DNA of 32,000 nucleotides from assembly GCA_963704755.1 (NCBI GenBank), contig OY969938.1, forward strand, positions 1,800,001-1,832,000, written 5' to 3'. A program made the translations under genes and the position numbers. The stretch's first letter is position 1. Every line of letters begins with the position of its first letter. The notes below the pieces were generated by a model. That model was not told the origin of the DNA, did no database searches, and worked only from the letters and a program-made list of their open reading frames with translations. Origin of the DNA: an uncultured Chloroflexia bacterium (GTDB lineage: Bacteria; Chloroflexota; Anaerolineae; Anaerolineales; Anaerolineaceae). Positions 261 to 32,000 of this stretch are shown one piece after another.

Positions 261-1385
261 TCATTCCGTCTTGCCATTCTTCTTAATTACCACAGCCGTA
301 AAATCGTCCTGTTGAACGGCATCCCCGGTAAAGGCCTGTAACGACTGCCACAATTCCTGGCAGATTTCTCCCGCCGATCTCTCGCGCAGGCGCACCAGTT
401 GTTCCACGATGCGCTCGCCGCCAAAGGAATGCCCGTCTCCATGGATCAACTCGGTCAGGCAGTCGCTGAAGAGCAGCATTACCCCGCCCTCCTCCAGTGT
501 GATCCGGTTTTCGTCCAGCACCAGGTCATCGAACACCCCCAGGGCCGCCCCAGGGCCGGGTTTTACCGCCAGCGGCCGGCCGTCGCCGCCCAGCAAGACC
601 GGCGCGGGGTGCCCGGCGCGGGCGTAGTCGAACGTCCCGCTGGGGCCATCCAGAATGCCGAAAAACAGGGTCACGAACATGTCCGCAGCATTCATATTCA
701 CCAGGTAGCGATTGACCCGTTCCAGCACCTCCCGCGGGCTGCAATCGGGGTCGGCCTCGGCATGGATCAGGCTGAAGGTCAGCGCCATGAACAAGGCCGC
801 CGGCACGCCTTTATCGGACACGTCTCCCAAAATAATCGCCGTGCGGCCGCGGCCGAAATCGAGAAACTCGTAAAAATCTCCGCCCACGGCGCGGGCCGGC
901 TCCATCAAAGCCCCCAGGTCGTAACCGGGCAGGCTTGGCGCCGATTCGGGCAGCATGCTACGCTGGATCTGCCGGGCAAAATCCAGCTCGATTTCCATTT
1001 TGCGCAGCAAATCGCGCTGCCGGTCACGCAGGCGCTTCTTTTCCAGGCTGGCATCGATGCGCGCTTTGAGCAGCACCTGGTCCACCGGCTTGGTCAGGTA
1101 ATCCTCGGCCCCCATCTGGATGCACTTGACCACGCTGTCCATTTCTTCCAGCGCCGAGGTGATGATCACGGGCGTATCGCGCAGCCGCGGGTCGGCCAGC
1201 ACCTGCTCGAGCACGCTGTAGCCGTTCATTTCGGGCATCTCGATATCCAGCAGCATCAATTCCACCGGGCAGGAGCGCAGCAGTTCCAGCGCCTGCCGGC
1301 CATTTTCGGCATACATCACCCGGTGGCCCTGCAATTCCAGGTAGCGGCCCAGCAAAAGCCGGTTGGTCTTGACGTCATCGACCAC
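261..1385 (-). CDS. Response regulator with receiver domain fused to a PP2C/SpoIIE (RsbU-type) serine phosphatase domain
   Basis: 374-aa ORF. Receiver motifs: LMLLDIEMPEMNG, IITSA, TKP. A coiled linker follows, then PP2C/SpoIIE-type motifs: GGDFYEF, ILGDVSDKGVPAALFM, DDFTAVVIK. The start is uncertain: the ORF track uses GTG at 1385, but the receiver beta-1 residues LLVVDD are encoded in-frame just upstream. Confidence 0.85.
   Translation of the reverse strand: MVDDVKTNRLLLGRYLELQGHRVMYAENGRQALELLRSCPVELMLLDIEMPEMNGYSVLEQVLADPRLRDTPVIITSALEEMDSVVKCIQMGAEDYLTKPVDQVLLKARIDASLEKKRLRDRQRDLLRKMEIELDFARQIQRSMLPESAPSLPGYDLGALMEPARAVGGDFYEFLDFGRGRTAIILGDVSDKGVPAALFMALTFSLIHAEADPDCSPREVLERVNRYLVNMNAADMFVTLFFGILDGPSGTFDYARAGHPAPVLLGGDGRPLAVKPGPGAALGVFDDLVLDENRITLEEGGVMLLFSDCLTELIHGDGHSFGGERIVEQLVRLRERSAGEICQELWQSLQAFTGDAVQQDDFTAVVIKKNGKTE

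Positions 1386-1751: not shown

Positions 1752-1759
<8 letters not shown>
1409..1759 (-). CDS. Histidine phosphotransfer (Hpt) domain protein
   Basis: 116-aa ORF carrying the canonical Hpt motif [12 protein letters not shown]. Its ATG (1757-1759) overlaps the TGA of the upstream kinase (1752-1754) in an ATGCTTGA arrangement, indicating translational coupling. Confidence 0.85.
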
Positions 1760-7355
<5,596 letters not shown>

Positions 7356-12593: not shown

Positions 12594-12649
12594 GGGTGTT
12601 TTTATAATTTTTCGCATGAACTCGCATGCAAAAAATTATAAAAACACCC
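12594..12649. repeat. Long AT-rich-stem palindrome H1 (GGGTGTTTTTA...TAAAAACACCC)
   Basis: 19-bp outer stem (12594-12612 with 12631-12649), a one-base mismatch, then a 5-bp GC inner stem GCATG/CATGC with a 6-nt loop. Lies in the 171-nt gap between the second ATPase gene and the HlyD-type gene. Confidence 0.8.
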
Positions 12650-12708
12650 TGCCTGTCTGAACCTGCCTGAGGCTGATAACAAATAATTGTGGAATAAAGG
12701 AGCACAAC

Positions 12709-14055
12709 ATGAAACGAAAGTTCTTTACCCCTGCCCTTGTTCTCATCCTGTCGATGAGTGTGGTACTGAGCGCCTGCTCCGGCTTAGGCCTTTCGCAGCA
12801 GAGCGATACAATGCAGGCTTCCGGGACCATTTCGGTCACGACCATCGAGGTTGCGCCCGAAGTGAGCGGCAAGATCGCGGAAATCAAAGCCGATAAAGGC
12901 GACTCGGTCAAAGCCGGCGATGTGTTGGTCGTATTAGACCAGCAAGTCCAGCAGGCTCAGCTCGACCAGGCCAATGCGGCCCTTCAGGTGGCCCAGGCCA
13001 ACCTGGATGTTGCCCAGGAAAAGCAGAACAACGCCCAGGTCCAGTATGACCTGGCCAGCCAATCCGCCCGCCAGGCGGACAAATCGGCTCACTCTGCGCA
13101 GTGGAGCGCCAGCCAGTCCAGCCAGATCGAACTGCCGGCCTGGTACTTCGAGAAAGACGAGCAAATCAACGCCCTGCAATCGGTAGTCGCTGGCGCCCAG
13201 AGCGACCTGCAATCCGAACAGACCAACCTGGAAAATGAGCAGAAAGACGCCAGCAACAGCGACTTCATTTCGGCCGAAAAGCACCTGGCCGAAGCCCAGG
13301 CGGCCTACACCATCGCCCTGCAAACTCACGACGAAGCCCAATCCGCCAGCAGCACCGGCTACCTGCTCGATTCAGCCCAAAAGACACTCGACTCGGCCAA
13401 AGCCGACCTCGACTCGGCCCAGAAGTTATATGACCAGATGCTCTCCACCGACGCCGCCGACCGGATCCAGGAAGCCCGCGCCCGGGTAGCCGTGGCCCAG
13501 GAACGCCTGAACAATGCCCAGGATGCCCTCGATGCGTTGATGACCGGCGACAACTCACTTCAGCTCCAGTCCGCCCAGAGCAACCTGAACATGGCCAAAA
13601 CTGGTGTGACCCAGGCCCAGGCCGCCCTGGCCCAGGCTCAGGACGCCGCCAAACTGGCCCAGATCCAGCTCAATAAGACCAACGTGGTCGCACCCACTTC
13701 CGGCATCGTGCTCTCCCGCCCGATGAACCCGGGTGAGATCGCCGCCGCCGGTGCGGACGTAATCGAAATCGGCTCGCTCGACACCGTCACGTTGACCGTC
13801 TATATCCCCGAAAACGAATACGGCCACATCCAGTTGGGCCAGAAGGCCAGCGTCAGCGTGGATTCCTTCCCCGGCCGGACCTTCGATGGCAGTGTGACCT
13901 ACATCGCCAACGAAGCCGAATACACCCCGCGCAATGTGCAAACCGTCGCCAGCCGCAGCACAACCGTCTACCGGGTGGAAATCAGCCTGCCCAATTCGGA
14001 TTTGAGCCTCAAACCGGGCATGCCTGCCGACGCAACGTTTAGCATCGGCCAGTAA
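12709..14055 (+). CDS. HlyD-family periplasmic adaptor (membrane fusion protein), probable lipoprotein
   Basis: 448-aa ORF. AAGGAG lies 7 nt upstream of the ATG. Signal peptide with lipobox LSAC. A lipoyl-like half (GDSVKAGDVLVVLD), then a long Q/A-rich coiled coil, then a beta-barrel region (VVAPTSGIVLSR..., YTPRNVQT...VYRVEI). Confidence 0.85.
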   Translation: MKRKFFTPALVLILSMSVVLSACSGLGLSQQSDTMQASGTISVTTIEVAPEVSGKIAEIKADKGDSVKAGDVLVVLDQQVQQAQLDQANAALQVAQANLDVAQEKQNNAQVQYDLASQSARQADKSAHSAQWSASQSSQIELPAWYFEKDEQINALQSVVAGAQSDLQSEQTNLENEQKDASNSDFISAEKHLAEAQAAYTIALQTHDEAQSASSTGYLLDSAQKTLDSAKADLDSAQKLYDQMLSTDAADRIQEARARVAVAQERLNNAQDALDALMTGDNSLQLQSAQSNLNMAKTGVTQAQAALAQAQDAAKLAQIQLNKTNVVAPTSGIVLSRPMNPGEIAAAGADVIEIGSLDTVTLTVYIPENEYGHIQLGQKASVSVDSFPGRTFDGSVTYIANEAEYTPRNVQTVASRSTTVYRVEISLPNSDLSLKPGMPADATFSIGQ

Positions 14056-14086
14056 AGCTGCGGTTAGCGGATAGCGGTTAGCTTTC

Positions 14087-14272
14087 GTAGGTTGGGTTGC
14101 GGGCTCATTCATGGCATGGGTTCATTCGCCGAAGTGTTTATCGCATAAGGCATTGCCCGCAACCCAACACCGGCAATACCCAAGCACAATGTTGGGTTAC
14201 GGGCAGAGCCCGAAATGGCACACAATCCAACAAAATTGCCGGCGTTCCAAATGAGCCCGCAACCCAACCTAC
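14087..14272 (+). repeat. A-element copy 1 (186 bp, 22-bp terminal inverted repeats)
   Basis: GTAGGTTGGGTTGCGGGCTCAT at 14087-14108 is the exact reverse complement of ATGAGCCCGCAACCCAACCTAC at 14251-14272. Followed by AGGC. Confidence 0.9.
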
Positions 14273-14276
14273 AGGC

Positions 14277-14436
14277 TGGCATGGGTTCTTTCGCCGAAGC
14301 GTTTATCGCATAAGGCATGGCCCGTAACCCAACACCCGCAATACCCAAGCACAAGGTTGGGTTACGGGCAGAGCCTGAAATGGCACACAATCCAACAAAT
14401 TGCCGACGTTCTGAATGAGCCCGCAACCCAACCTAC
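14277..14436 (+). repeat. A-element copy 2, 5-prime truncated (lacks the left inverted repeat)
   Basis: Starts at TGGCATGGG, which corresponds to position 26 of copy 1. Ends with ATGAGCCCGCAACCCAACCTAC (14415-14436) followed by AGGC. Confidence 0.85.
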
Positions 14437-14440
14437 AGGC

Positions 14441-14547
14441 CGATATTCAACCGAATGCCGGCAGGGTTGAGCCCCACGCAGGTAGGGCTTCGTGTATTTG
14501 TTGCCGCGACCTCGGTCGCCGCCACAGACGGTTAGCTTTTAGCTTTC
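14441..14547 (+). repeat. B-element copy 1 (~107 bp companion repeat)
   Basis: CGATATTCAACCGAATGCCGG...GGTTAGCTTTTAGCTTTC; near-identical to 14737-14850 and 15417-15523. Confidence 0.85.
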
Positions 14548-14732
14548 GTAGGTTGGGTTGCGGGCTCTATCGCAACATTGGTTTTTGGGCAAAACATATA
14601 ACGCACCCAGGCGTGGCCCGCAACCCAACACCCGCAATCCTCAAGCACAATGTTGGGTTACGGGCAGAGCCTGAAATGGCACACAATCCAACAAATTGCC
14701 GGCGTTCCAAATGAGCCCGCAACCCAACCTAC
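14548..14732 (+). repeat. A-element copy 3 (variant left-internal segment)
   Basis: Same termini as the other copies, but the ~45 nt after the left repeat (TATCGCAACATTGGTTTTTGGGCAAAACATATAACGCACCCAGGCG) are unrelated to them. Confidence 0.85.
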
Positions 14733-14736
14733 AGGC

Positions 14737-14850
14737 CGATATTCAACCGAATGCCGGCGGGGTTGAGCCCCACGCAGGTGGGGCTTCGTGTATTTGTTGC
14801 CGCGACCTCGGTCGCCGCCACAGGCGGTTAGCTTATAGCTTTTAGCTTTC
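14737..14850 (+). repeat. B-element copy 2
   Basis: Contains hairpin AGCCCCAC-gcag-GTGGGGCT (14766-14785) followed by a T-rich tract, and hairpin GCGAC-ctcg-GTCGC (14802-14815). Confidence 0.85.
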
Positions 14851-15035
14851 GTAGGTTGGGTTGCGGGCTTTTTCCTGGCATGGGTTCTTTCGCCGAAGCG
14901 TTTATCGCATAAGGCATGGCCTGTAACCCAACACCGGCAATCCCCAAGCACAACGTTGGGTTACGGGCAGAGCCTGAAATGGCACACAATCCAACAAATT
15001 GCCGGCGTTCTGAACGAGCCCGCAACCCAACCTAC
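14851..15035 (+). repeat. A-element copy 4
   Basis: GTAGGTTGGGTTGCGGGC... to ...GAGCCCGCAACCCAACCTAC. Followed by AGGC, then directly by the duplicated HlyD 3-prime segment. Confidence 0.85.
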
Positions 15036-15038
15036 AGG

Positions 15039-15195
15039 CTACATCGCCAACGAAGCCGAATACACCCCGCGCAATGTGCAAACCGTCGCCAGCCGCAGCA
15101 CCACCGTCTACCGGGTGGAAATCAGCCTGCCCAATTCGGATTTGAGCCTCAAACCGGGTATGCCCGCCGACGCAACGTTTAGCATCGGCCAGTAA
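15039..15195 (+). pseudogene. Duplicated 3-prime fragment (last 52 codons plus stop) of the HlyD-family gene
   Basis: 15039-15195 equals 13899-14055 with three substitutions (15102, 15159, 15165), all at third codon positions and synonymous. There is no upstream HlyD sequence. The 79-aa ORF 14956-15195 merely reads in from the repeat. Confidence 0.8.
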
Positions 15196-15226
15196 AGCTG
15201 CGGTTAGCGGATAGCGGTTAGCTTTC

Positions 15227-15412
15227 GTAGGTTGGGTTGCGGGCTCATTCATGGCATGGGTTCATTCGCCGAAGCGTTTATCGCATAAGGCATTGCCCGC
15301 AACCCAACACCGGCAATACCCAAGCACAATGTTGGGTTACGGGCAGAGCCCGAAATGGCACACAATCCAACAAAATTGCCGGCGTTCCAAATGAGCCCGC
15401 AACCCAACCTAC
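15227..15412 (+). repeat. A-element copy 5 (duplicate of copy 1)
   Basis: Identical to 14087-14272 except one base (15275 C versus 14135 T). Confidence 0.9.
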
Positions 15413-15416
15413 AGGC

Positions 15417-15523
15417 CGATATTCAACCGAATGCCGGCAGGGTTGAGCCCCACGCAGGTGGGGCTTCGTGTATTTGTTGCCGCGACCTCGGTCGCCGCCA
15501 CAGGCGGTTAGCTTATAGCTTTC
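15417..15523 (+). repeat. B-element copy 3
   Basis: Near-identical to B copies 1 and 2. Confidence 0.85.
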
Positions 15524-15708
15524 GTAGGTTGGGTTGCGGGCTCATTCATAGCATGGGTTCATTCGCCGAAGCGTTTATCGCATAAGGCATTGCCCGCAAC
15601 CCAACACCGGCAATACCCAAGCACAATGTTGGGTTACGGGCAGAGCCTGAAATGGCACACAATCCAACAAATTGCCGGCGTTCCAAATGAGCCCGCAACC
15701 CAACCTAC
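15524..15708 (+). repeat. A-element copy 6
   Basis: Full-length copy with both 22-bp terminal inverted repeats, followed by AGGC. Ends 20 nt before the stop of the convergent VOC gene. Confidence 0.9.
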
Positions 15709-15728
15709 AGGCTCCACTCACCCACCAA

Positions 15729-16124
15729 TTACCCGTTAAGCTGGTATATCTGAATCAGGTTACCGCAGGTATCATCCAGGATGGCGGCTGTGGTGATGCC
15801 CATGTTGGTGGGCTCCATGCTGAATTCCACGCCCAGCTTTTTAAGCCGTTCGTATTCCGCCTGGACGTCATCCACCAGAAAAGCGGTGTAAGGAATCCCG
15901 TCCCGGACCAGGTCTTCCTTGAGGGCCTTCATAGCCGGGTAGCCGGCGTTAGGCTCCAGGAGCAGCTCGGTACCATCCGGGGCTTCGGGCGAGACGACCG
16001 TGATCCAACGGGCGCCCTGCCCCAGGGGAATATCCCGTTTCTTGATAAAACCCAATATTTCGGTATAAAAATTCAATGCTTTGTCGTAGTCATCGATGGG
16101 GATACTGGCAAGAGAAATCTTCAT
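15729..16124 (-). CDS. VOC (glyoxalase/bleomycin-resistance/dioxygenase) family protein
   Basis: 131-aa ORF with a typical small VOC pattern: D..KALNFYTEILGF at the N-terminus, and the second half EYERLKKLGVEF...P......AILDD.CGNLIQIYQ. Confidence 0.8.
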   Translation of the reverse strand: MKISLASIPIDDYDKALNFYTEILGFIKKRDIPLGQGARWITVVSPEAPDGTELLLEPNAGYPAMKALKEDLVRDGIPYTAFLVDDVQAEYERLKKLGVEFSMEPTNMGITTAAILDDTCGNLIQIYQLNG

Positions 16125-16287: not shown

Positions 16288-18393
16288 ATGCCGTCGAGAG
16301 TGGCTGATCGTATCACGCAGGCGCGGCAGCGCCTCTTTGTAGGAAGAAACAGCGAGCAGGGCCTTTTTTTGTCTGCGCTGGGGGCTGATGAATTGCCCTT
16401 TCAGGTTTTACACATTTTTGGACCAGGGGGTATTGGCAAAACCACGCTCCTGCACGAGTATGCCCGCATCGCCAGAGAACACACATTACGGGTGGCCGCG
16501 GTAGACGGCAGAAACATCGAGCCGGTGCCCGAAAATTTTCTGAATGCCCTGCGAGCTGCCCTGGGGCTCGCCGCAGGTGCATCCGCGCTGCAATACCTCG
16601 CGGAAAACCTCCAACGCCAGGTCATCCTGATCGACACTTACGAATTGCTGGCGCCGCTCGACGCCTGGTTGTACGAGTCATTCTTCCTTGAACTGCCCGA
16701 TAACACTTTGATTGTACTCGCCAGCCGCAACCCGCCTTCCAATACGGCCCGCGCGGATGCCGGCTGGCAGACCCTGATCCGTTCGGTCTCTTTGCGCAAC
16801 CTCAACCCGCAGGAGAGCCGCAAGTTTCTATCCAACCGCCACGTGCCGGCCAACCAACACCAGGCCGTCCTGAATTTTACCCACGGGCAGCCCCTGGCCC
16901 TCTCGCTGGTGGCCGACATGTTCGCCCAGCGCCAGGACTGGAACTTTCAAGCGCAGGCGGCACCCGACGTGGTCAAGATACTGCTGGAAAGGTTCGTACA
17001 AAAGGTCCCCGGCCCGGCCCACCGCGCCGCGCTGGAAGCCTGCGCGCTTGTACGGGTGACCACCAAATCGCTGTTGGCCGAAATGCTCAAATTGCCCGAC
17101 CCCGCTGGCGATACCGCCCAGGGTGCCCACGAGCTGTTCGAATGGCTGCGCGGGCTGTCCTTCATCGAGGCGGGTGAGCAGGGTATTTATCCTCACGACC
17201 TGGCGCGCGAAGCCCTGGTCGCCGACCTGCACTGGCGCAACCCGGATTGGTACAAAGAGCTGCACAACCGGGCGCGCATCTATTACGTTGCCCATCTGCA
17301 ATCCAGCTCATTGCAAGATCAGCAGCGCATCCTTTTCGATTACATATTTCTCCATCGCGATAACCCGATCATGCGCGCGATGTTCGAATGGCAGGCCAGC
17401 GGGATCTGGGCGGATGGGCTGCGGGCCGGCGAACGGGACATCCTGCTCGAGATGATCGCCGCCCACGAAGGCGCCTCGTCGGCGCAACTGGCCGCCCACT
17501 GGCTCGACCGGCAGCCAGAGGGTGTCAGCGTCTATCGCGACGAACGCGGCAATGTGATCGGCATCTTCTTCATCGTCGAGCTGCAGCGCGCCACCCCGGC
17601 CGAGATCGAAGCCGACCCGGCTACCCGGGCGGCCTGGAATTACCTGAAACAACGCGCCCCATTGCGCCCGGGCGAGGTGGCGGCCCATTATCGTTTTTGG
17701 ATGGCGCGCGATAGCTATCAAGCCGTATCGGCCGTGCAAACTCAAATCTTCTTGAGCACCGTGCGCTACCAGATCGCCACAGCCGGGCTGGCCTTTCATT
17801 TCCTGCCCTGCGCCGACCCGGATTTCTGGTCGGCCGCGTTGACCTACGGTGATTTAACCCGCCTGCCGGAAACAGATTACAGCATCGGCGAGAGGACATA
17901 CGGCGTGTTCGCCCACGACTGGCGCTCCCGCCCACCCCTGGCCTGGCTGGCCCTGCTGGCCGAGCGAGAGGTCGGCGAAACACCCTCCACCGCAAACGCC
18001 GAACCGCTGATCGTTTTGAGTCGCAACGAATTTGACGCGGCGGTTCGCGATGCGTTGCTGCACTTTATGCAAAATGATCTGCTTGCCAATAACCCCCTGC
18101 TCCGCTCGCGCCTGGTGATGGACCGCGTGAGTGCGCCGGGGAGCCAAAGTGAACGGGTGGATGCGCTGAAGCAAGCCCTCCGGGAAGTGGTCGAATCGCT
18201 GAACAAAATCCCGCGGGACGCCAAACTATACCGCGCGCTGTATTATTTCTATTTGCATCCTGCCGGTTCGCAGGAACAGGCCTCCGAAGCGGCCGACGTG
18301 CCCTTCAGCACTTTCCGCCGGCATCTCAAGGCCGGGCTGACCCGGGTGGTCACTGGGCTCTGGCAAAAGGAGATCGGCGCGGGCGGGCAATAA
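16288..18393 (+). CDS. Large P-loop NTPase (AAA/STAND-like) with an unassigned central region and a C-terminal helix-turn-helix
   Basis: 701-aa ORF. Walker A GPGGIGKTTLL, Walker B-like VILIDTYE. The C-terminal ~70 aa (LYRALYYFYLHP..SQEQASEAADVPFSTFRRHLKAGLTRV) resemble a sigma-70 region-4/LuxR-type HTH. I cannot assign the middle ~350 aa. Confidence 0.7.
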   Translation: MPSRVADRITQARQRLFVGRNSEQGLFLSALGADELPFQVLHIFGPGGIGKTTLLHEYARIAREHTLRVAAVDGRNIEPVPENFLNALRAALGLAAGASALQYLAENLQRQVILIDTYELLAPLDAWLYESFFLELPDNTLIVLASRNPPSNTARADAGWQTLIRSVSLRNLNPQESRKFLSNRHVPANQHQAVLNFTHGQPLALSLVADMFAQRQDWNFQAQAAPDVVKILLERFVQKVPGPAHRAALEACALVRVTTKSLLAEMLKLPDPAGDTAQGAHELFEWLRGLSFIEAGEQGIYPHDLAREALVADLHWRNPDWYKELHNRARIYYVAHLQSSSLQDQQRILFDYIFLHRDNPIMRAMFEWQASGIWADGLRAGERDILLEMIAAHEGASSAQLAAHWLDRQPEGVSVYRDERGNVIGIFFIVELQRATPAEIEADPATRAAWNYLKQRAPLRPGEVAAHYRFWMARDSYQAVSAVQTQIFLSTVRYQIATAGLAFHFLPCADPDFWSAALTYGDLTRLPETDYSIGERTYGVFAHDWRSRPPLAWLALLAEREVGETPSTANAEPLIVLSRNEFDAAVRDALLHFMQNDLLANNPLLRSRLVMDRVSAPGSQSERVDALKQALREVVESLNKIPRDAKLYRALYYFYLHPAGSQEQASEAADVPFSTFRRHLKAGLTRVVTGLWQKEIGAGGQ

Positions 18394-20713: not shown

Positions 20714-20778
20714 AGACGAGGGTGTTATTTGCTTTTTTGTGGACGAAGCACAAAAAAAAACAAATAACACCTTCGTCT
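20714..20778. repeat. Long imperfect palindrome H2 (same family as H1 and H3)
   Basis: AGACGAGGGTGTTATTTG (20714-20731) pairs with CAAATAACACCTTCGTCT (20761-20778) with one G-T pair. An internal loop follows, then a 9-bp inner stem TTTTTTGTG/CACAAAAAA and a 7-nt loop. Confidence 0.75.
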
Positions 20779-20844
20779 TCTAAACCTGCCTGAGCAATAA
20801 CTTAACCAGTATAATGACCTGGAAATCCTTCTTTCGAGACCGCG

Positions 20845-21363: not shown

Positions 21364-21418
21364 GGGTGTTTTTACAGTTGTTCGCGTGCTTCGCACGCGA
21401 ACAACTGTAAAAACACCC
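21364..21418. repeat. Perfect 26-bp-stem palindrome H3 (GGGTGTTTTTA...TAAAAACACCC)
   Basis: 21364-21389 pairs perfectly with 21393-21418 around a 3-nt loop TTC. The first and last 11 nt are identical to those of H1. Confidence 0.85.
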
Positions 21419-21598: not shown

Positions 21599-22780
21599 AT
21601 GCAAATCAAAAAATTGCTACCGGCACTTATGGTAGTGTTCACCCTCGCACTGGCCGCTTGTAGTACACCGGCCGCCACCTCAACCTCCATCGGTGGGGGA
21701 ACCTTACCAGCCTCGACAAGCGTGGGGACCATGGAAAGCACTCTGCCTGAAACGACCACGGTCGGCACCGAACCCTCCATGACAGGTACGGTAGGCACAC
21801 CCTCTGGGACAGAAGTACTTCCTCCAACCGGTTCCACCGACCCGGGCAGAGTATCGAATATGCTTCAATTCGGAGTCTACAACCAGAACAACGAACAGAT
21901 CGGCAACGTCGATGATCTGGTCGTGGACTTCAACCTGGCCAGCTTAAGCTACGTGATCGTCAAGAACACCAGTGGCGCTCTCATCCCGGTTCCTTGGGAT
22001 GCGCTCACCCTGGTAACCGGCGGAGCTGAAACTCAAACCACGAATGGTTCGGCCAACACCTTTGTTCTGAACGTGGATCAAAGCGTATTCGATGGTGCGC
22101 CAACAATCGATTTGAGCATCTTCCCACAATTCGGCGCAGAAGCCGGCAATTGGGACTCGGATATCAGCGCTTATTGGCAAAGTAACATGAGCGGCACCGG
22201 AACGACCACCCCGGAGACAACTCCAATGTCCACGGAGATGTCGACGGAAGCTCCTACCGAGATGTCAACCGGAGCCTCGACTGAAATGCCGACCGAGATG
22301 CCAACTGAGATGGCTACGTTACCGGCAACTGAAGCGGCTACCATGCCTTCCTCGACCGAAGTAGCCACCATGCCCTCGTCCACTGAAGTGGGCACCATGC
22401 CCGCCAGTACCGGTACGGGCGCACCCGCCCAAACTGGCCTCGTCGGTGTGGCTCTAGCCTCGCAATTGATCGGGCAAAGCATCCAACTCCCGGGTGCAAA
22501 CCTGACCCTTTCGGTTAGCGATATCATCGTAGATGTCCAGACGGGCGCGATCCAGTACCTGGTGATCTCCCTCACCGTCGGTGGTGGCACTGCCAGCCTG
22601 GTTCCGGTCCCGTTGAAAGACTTCAGTTGGGACACTTCTACCTCCAGCCTGTCGCTGTCGCTTAGCGCCTCCGACCTGCAATCAGCGCCCAGCTTTAGCC
22701 CAGACGCGTTCCCGAATACGCAACAACCCGGTTGGGATTCAAGTTTCGGTTCCTACTGGTCGAGCTTGCCCACCTCGTGA
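21599..22780 (+). CDS. Lipoprotein with two PRC-barrel-like domains and Thr/Glu/Met/Pro-rich low-complexity linkers
   Basis: AAAAGGAG RBS. Signal peptide with lipobox LAAC. PRC-barrel-like segments FGVYNQNNEQIGNVDDLVVDF...YVIV and LIGQSIQL...VSDIIVDVQTGAIQYLVISL. Central repeats TEMSTEAPTEMSTGASTEMPTEMPTEMA... and ATMPSSTEV x2. Confidence 0.7.
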   Translation: MQIKKLLPALMVVFTLALAACSTPAATSTSIGGGTLPASTSVGTMESTLPETTTVGTEPSMTGTVGTPSGTEVLPPTGSTDPGRVSNMLQFGVYNQNNEQIGNVDDLVVDFNLASLSYVIVKNTSGALIPVPWDALTLVTGGAETQTTNGSANTFVLNVDQSVFDGAPTIDLSIFPQFGAEAGNWDSDISAYWQSNMSGTGTTTPETTPMSTEMSTEAPTEMSTGASTEMPTEMPTEMATLPATEAATMPSSTEVATMPSSTEVGTMPASTGTGAPAQTGLVGVALASQLIGQSIQLPGANLTLSVSDIIVDVQTGAIQYLVISLTVGGGTASLVPVPLKDFSWDTSTSSLSLSLSASDLQSAPSFSPDAFPNTQQPGWDSSFGSYWSSLPTS

Positions 22781-28953: not shown

Positions 28954-30375
28954 TTAACTCTTCTTCGTCCCGCGTTTACTCGGACTGGCCGGCGGGATGG
29001 CCATATAGGGCGGCGCCGTAATTGCATAGATATTGCAGATGCGCTTATCCAGCATCCGGCTGCGGATGCGCGGGTCGATTTCGCTCATTTCCTGCGGTGT
29101 CGTGATCACCGTAGGCAGCTTGGCGTTATAACGGTAATTAAGCAATTGGAATAGCTTTTCGCGCGCCCATGGGGTGGCGCTCTGCGTGCCCAGGTCGTCC
29201 AAAATCAACAAGGGCGCCGTGCGGACTTCCTCGAAACGCCGGTCGTAAGGCACGGTGCTGTTCGGCGAAAAGGTCGCGCGCAAATAATCCAGCAGCTCGG
29301 GCACCCCCACAAAGATCGGCAATTCCCCCATCGCTTTGCGGTAGTTGCCAATCGCGGCCGCCAGGTGCGTCTTGCCGGTAAAATAATCGCCGATGAAGAC
29401 CAGCCAGCCTTGAGGCGTTTCGGCAAATTGAGCGGCTGCGTTGAAGGCCTTTTGCAGGCTCTGCTGCTCCTCCCGCGGGATGCGCTCATATTCGCGCATC
29501 GAGAAAGAAGCCAGCGTGCGATCACTCAACTGGGCCAGGGACGAGACCGCCGAGGCGTTATCGTCGTTGACCGGCGAGCGATAATCCGGGGCATTGATCT
29601 CCACCTGGTGGCATAGGTCGGGGTCCTGCAAACGTGAAGATATCCGCCCATCGATCTCCCCCATCGACAGGTTGGTGGTCACCACCAGCGGCAGATGATT
29701 GGTATAACGGTAGTTGATGATCTGGTACAGTTTTTCCCCCGCCCAGGCGGTGGCGTTTTGAGTGCCCAGGTCATCCAGTACCAGCAGGCGGATGTCACGG
29801 ATCTCGTCCAGGCGCTCCTCGAAGGTCATATCGCTGCCGGAGAACGAACTGCGCAGCCAATCCAGTAAATCGGGCACGGTCAAAAACAGCGTCGGTACCC
29901 CCAGATCCACCGCAAAATTGGCGATTGCCGCCGCCAAATGGGTTTTACCGCTGCCGTACGGGCCGGTCATCATCAGCCAGCCTTCCAAATGTTGGGCAAA
30001 CTGGTTGGCCTGGTTGTAGGCAAATTGCAGCGAATGGACCTGCTGATCTCCCAGCCCCAGCCTGCCCTGGACGTTAAACGTATCAAAAGTCATCTCGCGG
30101 AAAGCATTCAGGTTGCTCAAGCGGTACAGGCGCGTGCGCTCAGTACGCATTACTTCGCGTTGCCGGCAGGAACAGATTTCCACCTTGCCAAAATCCGGGT
30201 CGCCAATCGGCAGTTCGCGGCGGATAAAGCCGACGCCGTGACAGATCGGGCAGTTTGGGTCGCCGGGCAATCCCGCGACAGGGGTAGGCGGTTCAGTGTT
30301 CGATGAACTCGCCGTATTCTCCCTGGACATACCGGCGGCGATCTTTTTGAGACTTTCCTCGATTGGCTTCGTCAT
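28954..30375 (-). CDS. Helicase-loader-like protein with an N-terminal zinc ribbon and two tandem DnaC/DnaI/IstB-type AAA+ modules
   Basis: 473-aa ORF with GGAG 8 nt upstream of the ATG. Cys cluster CPICHG...EICSC. Module 1: GPYGSGKTHLAAAI, LLVLDDLGTQ, VVTTN, RISSRL. Module 2: GDYFTGKTHLAAAI, LLILDDLGTQ, VITTP, RIRSRM. The two modules align over ~170 aa. Confidence 0.8.
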   Translation of the reverse strand: MTKPIEESLKKIAAGMSRENTASSSNTEPPTPVAGLPGDPNCPICHGVGFIRRELPIGDPDFGKVEICSCRQREVMRTERTRLYRLSNLNAFREMTFDTFNVQGRLGLGDQQVHSLQFAYNQANQFAQHLEGWLMMTGPYGSGKTHLAAAIANFAVDLGVPTLFLTVPDLLDWLRSSFSGSDMTFEERLDEIRDIRLLVLDDLGTQNATAWAGEKLYQIINYRYTNHLPLVVTTNLSMGEIDGRISSRLQDPDLCHQVEINAPDYRSPVNDDNASAVSSLAQLSDRTLASFSMREYERIPREEQQSLQKAFNAAAQFAETPQGWLVFIGDYFTGKTHLAAAIGNYRKAMGELPIFVGVPELLDYLRATFSPNSTVPYDRRFEEVRTAPLLILDDLGTQSATPWAREKLFQLLNYRYNAKLPTVITTPQEMSEIDPRIRSRMLDKRICNIYAITAPPYMAIPPASPSKRGTKKS

Positions 30376-30997
30376 GCTCTTTCTCCAGGCGAGACTTTAA
30401 TATTGCTTCTACATAGCGCCACCGGCGCACGTTGCTCTCCACGGCCGCGCGAATGGCCGCTTCGATCCAGTCCATGGGGTAAGTCAACTCGGCTTCCCGC
30501 AAGGATTCGGCGATCATGGGCGTCAACGGGCCGATGTTTTGTTCGTACAAACGGTAGATATTCGGCCGCTCAACCTCCAGGTTCAAGGTGGAACGGTCGA
30601 TTTGTTCGGGAAACCATTGGCGGTCCTTCAAAGCAGCGACGGCCGCCCGGCCCCGCGGTGAATTGAGAAAATACAGGTCATCCTGCGGCCCGCCCTCGGC
30701 CAGGCTGACCTTGAGCAGCGTACCGCGTTGGACGGTGCGCTCCATCCCATCGCGCAGGCGATCCAGCGCCTGTTCGGGGTCGCGGCTAAGGCTTTCCATC
30801 AGAACCCGGTCACTCGAAAAATCGGCCAGGCGCAGGTAGCGGAACTCCCCTTCCAGGCGATCCAGCGCCCAGAAGGCGTACAGGGTAACCTTGAGCTCGC
30901 CCAGGTGATCGATTTCAGGCAGCAGCTCGCTAAAAAATTCGACCGGCAGCGGGGTCAGGTGCGTCTTGCCGGCCGGGAACCCGCTAAATCTACTCAT
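30293..30997 (-). CDS. DnaD-domain (replisome organiser / DnaB_2-like) protein
   Basis: 234-aa ORF with GGGGGA 6 nt upstream of the ATG. C-terminal DnaD-domain pattern IYRLYEQNIGPLTPMIAESL.EAE..YP.DWIEAAIRAAVESNVRRWRYVEAIL. Starts 11 nt after the dnaB stop. Confidence 0.7.
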   Translation of the reverse strand: MSRFSGFPAGKTHLTPLPVEFFSELLPEIDHLGELKVTLYAFWALDRLEGEFRYLRLADFSSDRVLMESLSRDPEQALDRLRDGMERTVQRGTLLKVSLAEGGPQDDLYFLNSPRGRAAVAALKDRQWFPEQIDRSTLNLEVERPNIYRLYEQNIGPLTPMIAESLREAELTYPMDWIEAAIRAAVESNVRRWRYVEAILKSRLEKEHDEANRGKSQKDRRRYVQGEYGEFIEH

Positions 30998-31008
30998 ATC
31001 TAATCCCC

Positions 31009-32000
31009 CTATCCATGCGATTCGACCTGGAAGGCCGGGGCAGCGTTTTCGAAGCGGGCTAGCCGGTCCAGGAAGACCAGCTCGATCCCCGGGTGGGTCG
31101 GACCATTCCGGTGCTTTGCCACGATAATTTCGGCAATATTCTTGCGCGGATTATCCTTCTCGAGCGCATCCGGCCGGTTGATGAACATGACGATGTCTGC
31201 GTCCTGCTCCAGCGAGCCTGATTCGCGCAGGTCCGAGAGGACCGGACGCTTGTCCGCGCGCTGCTCGACTGCACGTGAAAGCTGGGCAGCCGCGAGTACC
31301 GGCACGTTCAGCTCGCGGGCCAGGACCTTCAGGTTACGGGAAATATAAGATACCTCCTGGACGCGGTTATCGTTACGGGTATCCCCCGACATAAGCTGCA
31401 AATAGTCCACAATGACCAGGTCCAGGCTGTACTCCAGGTGCAGCCGGCGGCACTTGGTGCGCAACTGCAAAGGCGTGATGGCCGGGGTATCATCCAGCCA
31501 GATGTGGGTATCGCTCAATACTTCGATGGCGTGGGTGAACAGCGGCCACTCGTCGTCGCCCAGCTTGCCGGTCCGCAGATGCTGGGTATCGATGCCGGTC
31601 TCCTGAGCGATCAGGCGCTGGACGAGCTGTTCGGCCGACATTTCCAGCGAAAAGATCGCCACGTGTTTTTTGTGGCGCTGGGCGGCATTTTTGGCCACGG
31701 AGAGCAGAAAACCGGTTTTACCCATACCCGGCCGCCCGGCGATAATCAGCAGGTCTGATTTTTGCAAACCACCCAGCAGGGTATCCAGGTCCTTCAACCC
31801 GGTGGGCACCCCAAAAATATCCTCGTCGCGCTTGGAAAGTTCATCGATCCGGTCGAAGTAATCACTCAAAACCGTTTGGATCGATTGCAAATCGTGCTGT
31901 GCACGGCGCTCGCTGAGGCTGAAAACCGATTTTTCGGCTTCGTCGATGATGGTATCCACGCTGCGCTGCTGGTCGAAGGCCAGCTTGGCCATCTCGTTGG
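31009..32000 (-). CDS. dnaB: Replicative DNA helicase DnaB, C-terminal RecA-like domain (N-terminus outside the window)
   Basis: Walker A GRPGMGKTGF, Walker B LVIVDYLQLM, then SRNLKVLARELNVPVLAAAQLSRAVE and LRESGSLEQDADIVMF. The frame stays open to the window edge, so the Met at 31992 is internal. Confidence 0.9.
   Translation of the reverse strand, partial: NEMAKLAFDQQRSVDTIIDEAEKSVFSLSERRAQHDLQSIQTVLSDYFDRIDELSKRDEDIFGVPTGLKDLDTLLGGLQKSDLLIIAGRPGMGKTGFLLSVAKNAAQRHKKHVAIFSLEMSAEQLVQRLIAQETGIDTQHLRTGKLGDDEWPLFTHAIEVLSDTHIWLDDTPAITPLQLRTKCRRLHLEYSLDLVIVDYLQLMSGDTRNDNRVQEVSYISRNLKVLARELNVPVLAAAQLSRAVEQRADKRPVLSDLRESGSLEQDADIVMFINRPDALEKDNPRKNIAEIIVAKHRNGPTHPGIELVFLDRLARFENAAPAFQVESHG

Follow-up and report, generated by a model that had tools for sequence, protein, structure and literature searches.

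The window analysed here, 32,000 nt of an uncultured Chloroflexia bacterium (contig OY969938.1), contains two convergent genes whose 3' ends are separated by a cluster of repeated palindromic elements, and it is this array, its two elements A and B and its probable origin that are treated below. The gene to the left encodes a HlyD-family periplasmic adaptor and is the final gene of an operon that reads TetR, two ABC-2 permeases, two ATPases and HlyD; the gene to the right is a glyoxalase/VOC gene on the opposite strand. The Pfam matches of both agree with the identities proposed in an earlier reading of the letters without database searches, the sequence-only reading. The next relatives of the HlyD protein are at most 60% identical to it, and include proteins named by their source as Longilinea, Anaerolineales and Chloroflexi. 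The copies of A and B were established by direct reading of 13900-15900, with a repeat finder, with Tandem Repeats Finder and by alignments. Reading, repeat finder and alignments gave all six A and three B copies the same coordinates as in the sequence-only reading, including the 5'-truncated A2, which begins at A position 26. The features of the locus are, in positions of the window:

12709-14055, plus strand: HlyD-family periplasmic adaptor gene, 1347 nt (Pfam HlyD_D23 and HlyD_3).
13896-13903, plus strand: left breakpoint of the donor segment, GACC|TACA; the copied part begins at 13900.
13900-14276, plus strand: donor segment, 377 nt, made of gene tail (156 nt), linker, A1 and AGGC, 99% identical to 15040-15416.
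14056-15728: gap between the convergent HlyD-type gene (plus) and VOC gene (minus), 1.67 kb, filled by the repeat cluster.
14056-14086, plus strand: linker, AGCT and a TAGC-heptad tract (GGTTAGC GGATAGC GGTTAGC TTTC), which aligns with the 3' end of B.
14087-14272, plus strand: A1, complete, 186 nt, with four 14-mers (+,-,+,-) and GTAG...CTAC ends.
14277-14440, plus strand: insert 2, 164 nt, which is A2 (14277-14436) and AGGC, a 5'-truncated A directly behind the AGGC of A1.
14441-14547, plus strand: B1, an 86-nt unique part and a TAGC tract, with a terminator-like hairpin with one mismatch at about 14469-14490.
14548-14732, plus strand: A3, with a variant left inter-arm segment at 14566-14615.
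14737-14850, plus strand: B2, with three TAGC heptads and a terminator-like hairpin at 14765-14786, followed by CGTGTATTTG.
14851-15035, plus strand: A4, whose inner-left arm GCCTGTAACCCAAC has a T-A pair with the inner-right arm.
15040-15416, plus strand: insert 1, 377 nt, made of gene tail 15040-15195 (stop codon included), linker 15196-15226, A5 15227-15412 and AGGC.
15417-15523, plus strand: B3, with a terminator-like hairpin at 15445-15466.
15524-15712, plus strand: A6 (15524-15708) and a terminal AGGC, followed by 16 nt of unique flank up to the VOC stop codon.
15729-16124, minus strand: glyoxalase/VOC gene, convergent with the HlyD-type gene (Pfam Glyoxalase, E = 1e-21).

The gap had been described as built solely of the two repeat types, and this has to be corrected. 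The 187 nt at 15040-15226 are neither A nor B; they repeat, at 99% identity, the final 156 nt of the HlyD-type gene with its stop codon, together with the 31-nt linker that follows it. The duplication as a whole covers 378 nt (13899-14276 = 15039-15416) with 4 mismatches; the 3 of these that fall in the gene tail alter third codon positions and are synonymous. We dropped these differences as a sign of selection or of strain mixing; they concern 3 sites only, and mutations in a functional copy are filtered anyway.

The junctions of the array follow a simple pattern. The left junction of A is invariant, TAGCTTTC|GTAGG, so the GCTTTC noted earlier ahead of every full A is in fact TAGCTTTC, and AGGC follows every copy, as was also noted. 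The right end ...CCTAC AGGC has four partners: A position 26, the beginning of B (in three cases), codon 398 of the HlyD-type gene and the unique flank before the VOC gene. The canonical junction from A to B reads ...CCTACAGGC|CGATATTC, and removal of the 377 nt at 15040-15416 joins A4 to B3 by exactly this junction. Removal of 14277-14440, which contains A2, likewise yields it. Because deleting either insert gives back the canonical junction exactly, the array is a regular backbone, linker-A1-(B-A)x3, with two later precise inserts; Tandem Repeats Finder gives the backbone a tandem period of 296-303 nt.

Both inserts have a fixed A-type 3' end and a variable 5' end, and both are placed straight behind the AGGC of an existing A. 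The left boundary of insert 1 lies inside the gene, at gtGACC|TACAtcg, and the breakpoint shares ACCTACA with the 3' end of A. The sequence at this donor breakpoint, GACCTACA, occurs a single time in the 30 kb outside the array, where CCTACA occurs five times, and CTAC occurs four times in the 1347-nt gene; we estimate the chance of a random breakpoint at GACCTACA to be a few per thousand. The left segment of A2 is identical to that of A4 (0/43 differences), and at the point that corresponds to the left boundary of A2, A4 reads TTCC|TGGC and A1, A5 and A6 read TTCA|TGGC. The donor-side left boundaries of both inserts are thus C|T, if the donor of A2 was an A4-like copy. The background frequency of the CT dinucleotide is 0.053. 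On the right side the junction is AGGC|T in 2/3 contexts. There are no target-site duplications, the flanks being GCTTTC and AGGC at every copy, and the microhomology at the insert junctions is at most 1 nt. A5 is identical to A1 over its entire right 122 nt, where A4 differs at 9 sites.

The sequence-only reading found no protein-like open reading frame, transposase or integrase in the array, and this holds, as the open reading frames of the array have no Pfam match and the 32 kb encode neither enzyme. A plus frame at 14839-15195 is open through A4 and continues in frame into the duplicated gene tail (...NEPATQPTG-YIANEAEY...SIGQ*); it has no Pfam match, and a homologue was not found in any frame. 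One reading frame of A is stop-free in all copies, which with six frames of about 62 codons is within chance expectation.

Complete copies of A open with GTAGGTTGGGTTGCGGGC and close with its reverse complement. This head and its inverted terminus had been recognised before; the perfect pairing in copies 1, 5 and 6 was then given as 22 nt, and the repeat finder shows it to be 23 nt. GTAG stands at 5/5 left ends of A and CTAC at 6/6 right ends. With at most 2 mismatches the 14-nt core GTTGGGTTGCGGGC has 23 matches within 14087-15708, strictly alternating +,-,+,-, as compared to 0.6 expected from shuffles, and 0/100 shuffles reach the observed count. A 24th match of the 14-mer in the window, with 2 mismatches, lies within a gene at 17413-17426. 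Each A has four such arms, outer-left, inner-left, inner-right and outer-right, at a fixed spacing of 50/22/49-50 nt; the inner inverted pair is present in each A and was absent from the earlier description. Unit A is thus a head-to-head dimer; a 14-nt arm with a GTAG tag stands at either end, and the same arm forms an inner inverted pair. The inter-arm segments are mutually unrelated, their likeness being no greater than that of shuffles. That A is an internal duplication, with halves that are reverse-complement copies, was considered and rejected, the match being restricted to the arms.

A folds as a nested hairpin, with a z of about -9 with both DNA and RNA parameters, and the nested fold (-91.7 kcal/mol) is more stable than a side-by-side double hairpin (-69.1 kcal/mol). 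In the inner stem of A2 and A4 a single C->T change converts a C.A mismatch to a T-A pair. A3 differs from the other copies in its left inter-arm segment, which has the same length and an unrelated sequence (29/50 identical, z = 1.2 as compared to shuffles), the rest of A3 showing 3-8 differences over about 121 positions. The variant segment makes a local hairpin beside the GTAG tag (14557-14576, 6-bp stem, 8-nt loop, z = -3.8), and this hairpin has the canonical shape of a repetitive extragenic palindrome (REP).

The alignment of element B shows that its 3' end and the gene-proximal linker are one and the same tract, consisting of two or three 7-nt units NNWTAGC and ending in TTTC. The tract stands ahead of the GTAGG heads at 14527-14547, 14823-14850, 15503-15523 and 14062-14086, with 2, 3, 2 and 3 units, respectively, in the variants GGTTAGC, GGATAGC, TTATAGC and TTTTAGC, and it resembles a small, hypervariable microsatellite in its behaviour. 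Within the unique 86-nt part of B there is a terminator-like hairpin that, on the strand of the operon, has a T-rich tail. With the 4 nt that follow the stop codon of HlyD and the 16 nt ahead of that of VOC, this part makes up about 106 nt.

In one relative (L037) the operon is conserved and followed by a gap of about 100 nt with a plain hairpin, and in another (L038) the conserved operon is followed by a gap of about 380 nt without repeats; the orthologous loci of these two nearest relatives contain neither the array nor GTAG-headed inverted repeats. B would thus be the ancestral spacer between the HlyD and VOC genes, captured and reiterated together with A, since the sum of about 106 nt fits the gap of about 100 nt in L037. 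The array itself is a lineage-specific gain, because in the relatives the operon is followed by an ordinary gap of about 100-380 nt.

To find further copies the exact 18-mer head GTAGGTTGGGTTGCGGGC was scanned against genome contigs (596 Gb), metagenome contigs and viral contigs. It gave 16, 19 and 1 single matches, respectively, where our own estimate for the genome scan is about 17 by chance. BLAST extension and reading placed the 18-mer of L010, L009 and L001 in ordinary coding sequence. A dispersed family of the kind that the sequence-only reading had in mind did not appear, there being no second locus beyond these chance-level single matches and none in the rest of the window. Only the match at the end of a 1.2-kb contig of Candidatus Contendobacter odensis (L002) and its metagenomic twin (L035) extend beyond the 18-mer. 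The flank there scores 12, as compared to 5.9 +/- 1.1 (maximum 9) for the null of the other 34 matches, and has 4 TAGC where these have 0-1. At both places the 18-mer is the tag and left arm of a canonical small GTAG REP hairpin, and a second unit in the Contendobacter contig reads GTCGGTTGGGTTGC....

The likeness of the Contendobacter GTAG REPs (GTAGGTTGGGTTGC-type) to the array is the identical 18-mer GTAGGTTGGGTTGCGGGC after a TAGC-heptad tract, and nothing else speaks as strongly for the head of A being a REP-type sequence. The differences are that their arms pair locally, with a 13-bp stem and 5-nt loop or a 10-bp stem and 8-nt loop, that the host is a gammaproteobacterium, and that the downstream sequence is unrelated. 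It can be suggested, tentatively and as the less likely possibility, that the array is a Chloroflexota member of a GTAG-REP lineage common with Contendobacter (head and TAGC tract), expanded to a nested form of 185 nt, and that its inserts are in-vivo C|T footprints of a REP-associated tyrosine transposase (RAYT), including the transduction of a host-gene fragment. If the lineage is indeed shared, this would imply either a cross-phylum transfer of a REP-RAYT system or a strong convergence imposed by the enzyme. At 484-570 of L002 there is also a compact nested dimer, GTAGGGCGGGTTAG...CTAACCCGCCCTAC, of the type formed by two inverted REPs (REPIN), with an inner inverted pair, a length of 87 nt and a z of -7.9. 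This dimer repeats the logic of the outer and inner arms of A in miniature, and the contig breaks at such repeats (the ends of L002 and L035).

The reading that we favour, with a confidence only slightly better than even, is that the array is a GTAG-tagged cluster of the type of REPs and bacterial interspersed mosaic elements (BIMEs), built by cleavage, strand transfer and local amplification by a HUH/Y1 (RAYT-like) enzyme. The anatomy, the folds, the junctions and the clean excision can be read directly, whereas the enzyme, the succession of events and whatever effect there is on RNA are what we infer. A RAYT-type processing is suggested because there are tagged hairpins, no target-site duplications, a fixed hairpin-proximal end, variable distal ends at C|T, of which one falls within a CTAC, and insertion directly 3' of a short constant sequence. 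For the E. coli enzyme TnpA_REP it has been shown that GTAG is required, that cleavage is confined to single-stranded DNA and takes place at C|T on either the 5' or the 3' side of the REP, and that tandem BIME copies can be built in vitro by its strand transfer (Ton-Hoang et al., PMC3333891). Among the cleavage sites listed for it are GACC^TACA and GGCC^TACA (PMC3333891), and the donor breakpoint octamer of insert 1, GACC|TACA, is identical to the first of these. Furthermore, GTAG has been described as a guide in the selection of CT or CA sites (Corneloup et al., PMC8266576). New C|T joins near a GTAG-tagged hairpin, with no target duplication, would fit what is expected from such an enzyme.

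The locus may then have developed in four steps. It would have started from an ancestral spacer of about 100 nt between the HlyD and VOC genes, with the terminator hairpin of the operon that is now the unique part of B. Two elements, each consisting of TAGC tract, A and AGGC, would have settled in it, one at each edge, after which the B-A unit was probably reiterated in tandem. Finally, two segments with the fixed 3' end ...CCTAC AGGC and a variable 5' end would have been placed precisely after the AGGC of an A that was already there. The first is an A truncated at its 5' end, and the second would have begun in the HlyD gene at GACC|TACA and taken the gene tail along. In this process the enzyme would be a HUH/Y1 protein of the RAYT (TnpA_REP) type, specific for single strands. 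It would bind the GTAG-tagged hairpin on unwound DNA and cleave C|T sites on the 5' or the 3' side of the hairpin, and strand transfer would join the ends. A probable consequence would be very stable hairpins and repeated terminators at the 3' ends of both convergent transcripts. The GC skew is negative on the plus strand over the whole of 1-32000, with a cumulative skew that declines steadily, and this bears on which strand would be the lagging-strand template for a single-strand enzyme; it is on this template that Y1 enzymes act.

Several results weigh against this reading. There were only two insertion events, so that the junction statistics are thin and partly post hoc, and the A->B junction of the backbone, AGGC|CGAT, is C|C and not C|T. 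The cleavage specificity is extrapolated from proteobacterial enzymes, and the 32-kb window encodes no Y1/HUH, transposase or integrase gene. The size of the unit is not that of a GTAG-REP, since the arms are 14 nt long and 50 nt apart, and only A3 has a local hairpin. No locus in the genome, metagenome or viral contigs has more than one match to the 18-mer, and a distant blastn of the plasmid and phage collections gave no match. A six-frame translation of one B+A unit against 5.8 billion proteins returned nothing at E <= 10, which is a weak test, as the array's own open reading frames were likewise unreturned. The family may be confined to this single locus.

The first alternative is an orphan local palindromic satellite, which arose once at this place and grew by slippage, template switching and unequal crossing-over, with no dedicated enzyme and no dispersed family. 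Long palindromes provoke replication errors, no other copy was found in the window or in the public collections scanned, no transposase lies nearby in the 32 kb, and the backbone amounts to simple tandem repetition every 296-303 nt. We regard this explanation as possible but unlikely. The junctions of the inserts have at most 1 nt of microhomology, and a crossover in the shared ACCTACA would give ...AACCTACATCG without AGGC, whereas ...AACCTACAGGC|TACATCG is observed. A breakpoint at the sole GACCTACA is left unexplained, and the identity of A5 to A1 over the right 122 nt means that a tandem duplication followed by deletion would require a crossover in the last 24 nt or so of A. Furthermore, the unrelated segment of equal length in A3 and the link to Contendobacter suggest that the family has other members.

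Another possibility is an error of long-read metagenome assembly, in which strain variants were wrongly joined or a repeat was collapsed or expanded, and which produced the duplicated gene tail and perhaps A2 as well. The source is apparently one contig of 4.87 Mb of an uncultured-type lineage, and the gene-tail copies differ at three synonymous sites only, as two strain alleles might, but such differences do not discriminate, being expected also from mutation in a functional copy. A random mis-join would not produce inserts that are bounded by element edges and excise cleanly to the canonical junction, and an array of 1.7 kb is short relative to long reads. An assembly artefact is thus very unlikely.

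The sequence-only reading had suggested that the long units were rather like miniature inverted-repeat transposable elements (MITEs). Such a cluster would owe its mobility to a DDE transposase acting in trans on the 23-bp terminal inverted repeats, and both the perfect repeats and the length of 185 nt would suit it. The lack of target-site duplications contradicts the suggestion, since of the two marks of a MITE the terminal inverted repeats are present and the direct duplications are not. Both later inserts are without a left inverted repeat, yet they are precisely placed; no insertion sequence (IS) with these ends is found in the window, and the plasmid and phage collections are negative. 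There is little to be said for this explanation, and it must be considered a faint chance.

Just as improbable, in our opinion, is that a function in RNA or DNA explains the array, be it as a 3'-untranslated-region stabiliser or terminator array, an array of structured noncoding RNAs, or 23 binding sites for a protein. The folds are very stable, the terminator-like hairpins of B are on the strand of the operon, and the C->T change in A2 and A4 repairs the C.A mismatch of the inner stem. The spacing is preserved in A3 despite the replaced sequence, and the binding-site version would explain the rigid 50/22/50 spacing. On the other hand, no Rfam family reaches the threshold, the copies are too alike to reveal covariation, and the relatives cope with a plain gap of about 100 nt; function alone would not account for the pattern of the junctions. 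The last alternative, that transcripts ending just past the hairpin of A were reverse transcribed and cDNA of variable length was inserted beside AGGC, would give the fixed 3' and variable 5' ends of the inserts, but with no reverse transcriptase in the window, no group II intron or retron RNA match in Rfam, and the CTAC and C|T breakpoints left unexplained by random 5' truncation, its probability is close to negligible.

The spread and amplification of REPs and BIMEs in vivo has been described as poorly understood (PMC8266576), and it is from in-vitro studies of a small number of proteobacterial enzymes that the model of C|T cleavage and strand transfer derives. If the array was built by a RAYT-like enzyme, as we favour, the locus would be a small natural record of REP dissemination, including the 3' end of a gene that was carried along. 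This would also imply that C|T cleavage and strand transfer of the RAYT type, a step of REP dissemination so far demonstrated in vitro only, has left footprints in vivo, and that the record lies in a phylum where REP systems are barely documented. The array also makes clear that a GTAG tag can go with arms that are 50 nt apart, and searches with the usual definition of a REP would miss such elements. If, on the other hand, the genome has no RAYT and no other copies, the array is a palindromic satellite complete in itself, and its interest is local. The junction footprints and the cross-phylum similarity of the head, which rest on two events and one external locus, would seem to deserve the attention of specialists.

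The rest of the window contains another family of hairpin repeats, unrelated to the array; its members are AT-rich, nearly perfect palindromes of some 56 nt (GGGTGTT...AACACCC) at 12594-12649, 21364-21418 and 20714-20778. The first of these sits just upstream of the HlyD-type gene, and two of the palindromes are followed by a common AACCTGCCTGA (12650-12670 and 20780-20800). A 27-nt tandem repeat (22340-22402, 2.3 copies, 83% matches) lies inside a PRC-barrel-domain gene at 21599-22780. A hybrid histidine kinase of 1867 aa, with six GAF and two receiver domains, is encoded on the minus strand at 1752-7355 and adjoins a response-regulator/SpoIIE phosphatase (261-1385, minus strand). At the other end of the window there is a cluster of replication genes (28954-31992, minus strand) with a DnaB helicase (31009-31992) and a DnaB_2/DnaD-like protein (30293-30997). 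The 473-aa protein at 28954-30375 on the same strand has IstB_IS21-like and DnaA-type AAA domains, and is probably a helicase loader and not an IS21 remnant.

We compared the array to the known classes, using the criteria for GTAG-REPs of Di Nocera et al. 2013 (PMC3733652) and the BIME features of PMC3333891. No match was found in Rfam 15 at the gathering score, and at E <= 1 only two miRNA-precursor models appeared, generic matches to a long hairpin that are far below threshold; the array thus belongs to no known Rfam family. An integron attC array lacking an integrase (CALIN) was considered, as the arm contains GTTGGGT/ACCCAAC and attC sites read RYYYAAC...GTTRRRY, and rejected; the junctions are AGGC|N and not G|TTRRRY, the inter-site segments of 22-50 nt are without the open reading frames that cassettes usually have, so that cassettes are absent, and there is no integrase in the 32 kb, where integrons often have an intI gene. 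With IS200/IS605 and their non-autonomous PATEs the array shares subterminal hairpins, the lack of a target-site duplication, the logic of single-strand peel-and-paste and an insertion directly 3' of a short specific sequence, here AGGC. It differs from them in that its ends are mutual inverted copies, with no tnpA/tnpB in the window and no dispersed copies known.

By the definitions of PMC3733652, a REP has a stem of 5-13 bp, a loop of 2-20 nt and a unit of 20-40 bp. The same paper describes the GTAG-REP superfamily as forming head-to-head dimers, with GTAG on the outside and spacers of 20-100 nt, and clusters of dimers that are reiterated with flanking DNA, in families of tens to thousands of units per genome. 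A carries the tetranucleotide at the end of the unit and outside its own stem, and it is such a dimer, with GTAG outside and a 22-nt spacer, reiterated as tandem B-A units and with a gene tail carried along. In the 32 kb there are 23 arms at one locus and none elsewhere but for the one in-gene match with 2 mismatches, and the public scans gave single matches at chance level. The GTAG-23 family of Thermomicrobium roseum and Roseiflexus castenholzii, compared here by its description in PMC3733652, is of the same phylum, has the GTAG tag and is clustered in blocks. In that description a small number of loci hold it in large blocks, 87 of the roughly 97 units of T. roseum being grouped, and its units are short stem-loops inside small palindromes, CCGSSCC...GGSSCGG, which those of the array are not.

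The likeness to REPs, BIMEs and REPINs that was seen in the sequence-only reading is thus borne out for the tag, the inverted pairs, the alternation, the fixed linkers and the site between convergent genes, and fails for the canonical size of a REP. Like the REPINs of P. fluorescens (PMC3116915, PMC3337134), A consists of an inverted pair of REP-like units with a short spacer (22 nt here), is non-coding and forms one long hairpin, as seen in its nested fold. The REPINs, however, are about 100 nt long and occur in tens to hundreds, mostly as dispersed singles that depend on a RAYT, whose gene as a rule is single-copy and has the REP on its flanks, whereas here there is one tandem cluster. The 23 alternating arms, with linker classes of 50, 22, 49-50 and 111-118 nt, correspond to the structure of a BIME. 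Compared with the BIME-2/REP clusters of E. coli (PMC3333891, PMC8266576), the differences are that hairpins of 20-40 nt are found there and arms that pair across 50 nt in a unit of 185 nt here, and that those clusters are hosted by Enterobacteria and this one, at one known locus, by a member of the Chloroflexota. Common to both are the alternating GTAG arms, the few fixed linker classes, the tandem reiteration, the extragenic position at the 3' ends of genes, a stem that retains one mismatch, and junctions that are compatible with C|T cleavage, the exact octamer GACC|TACA among them.

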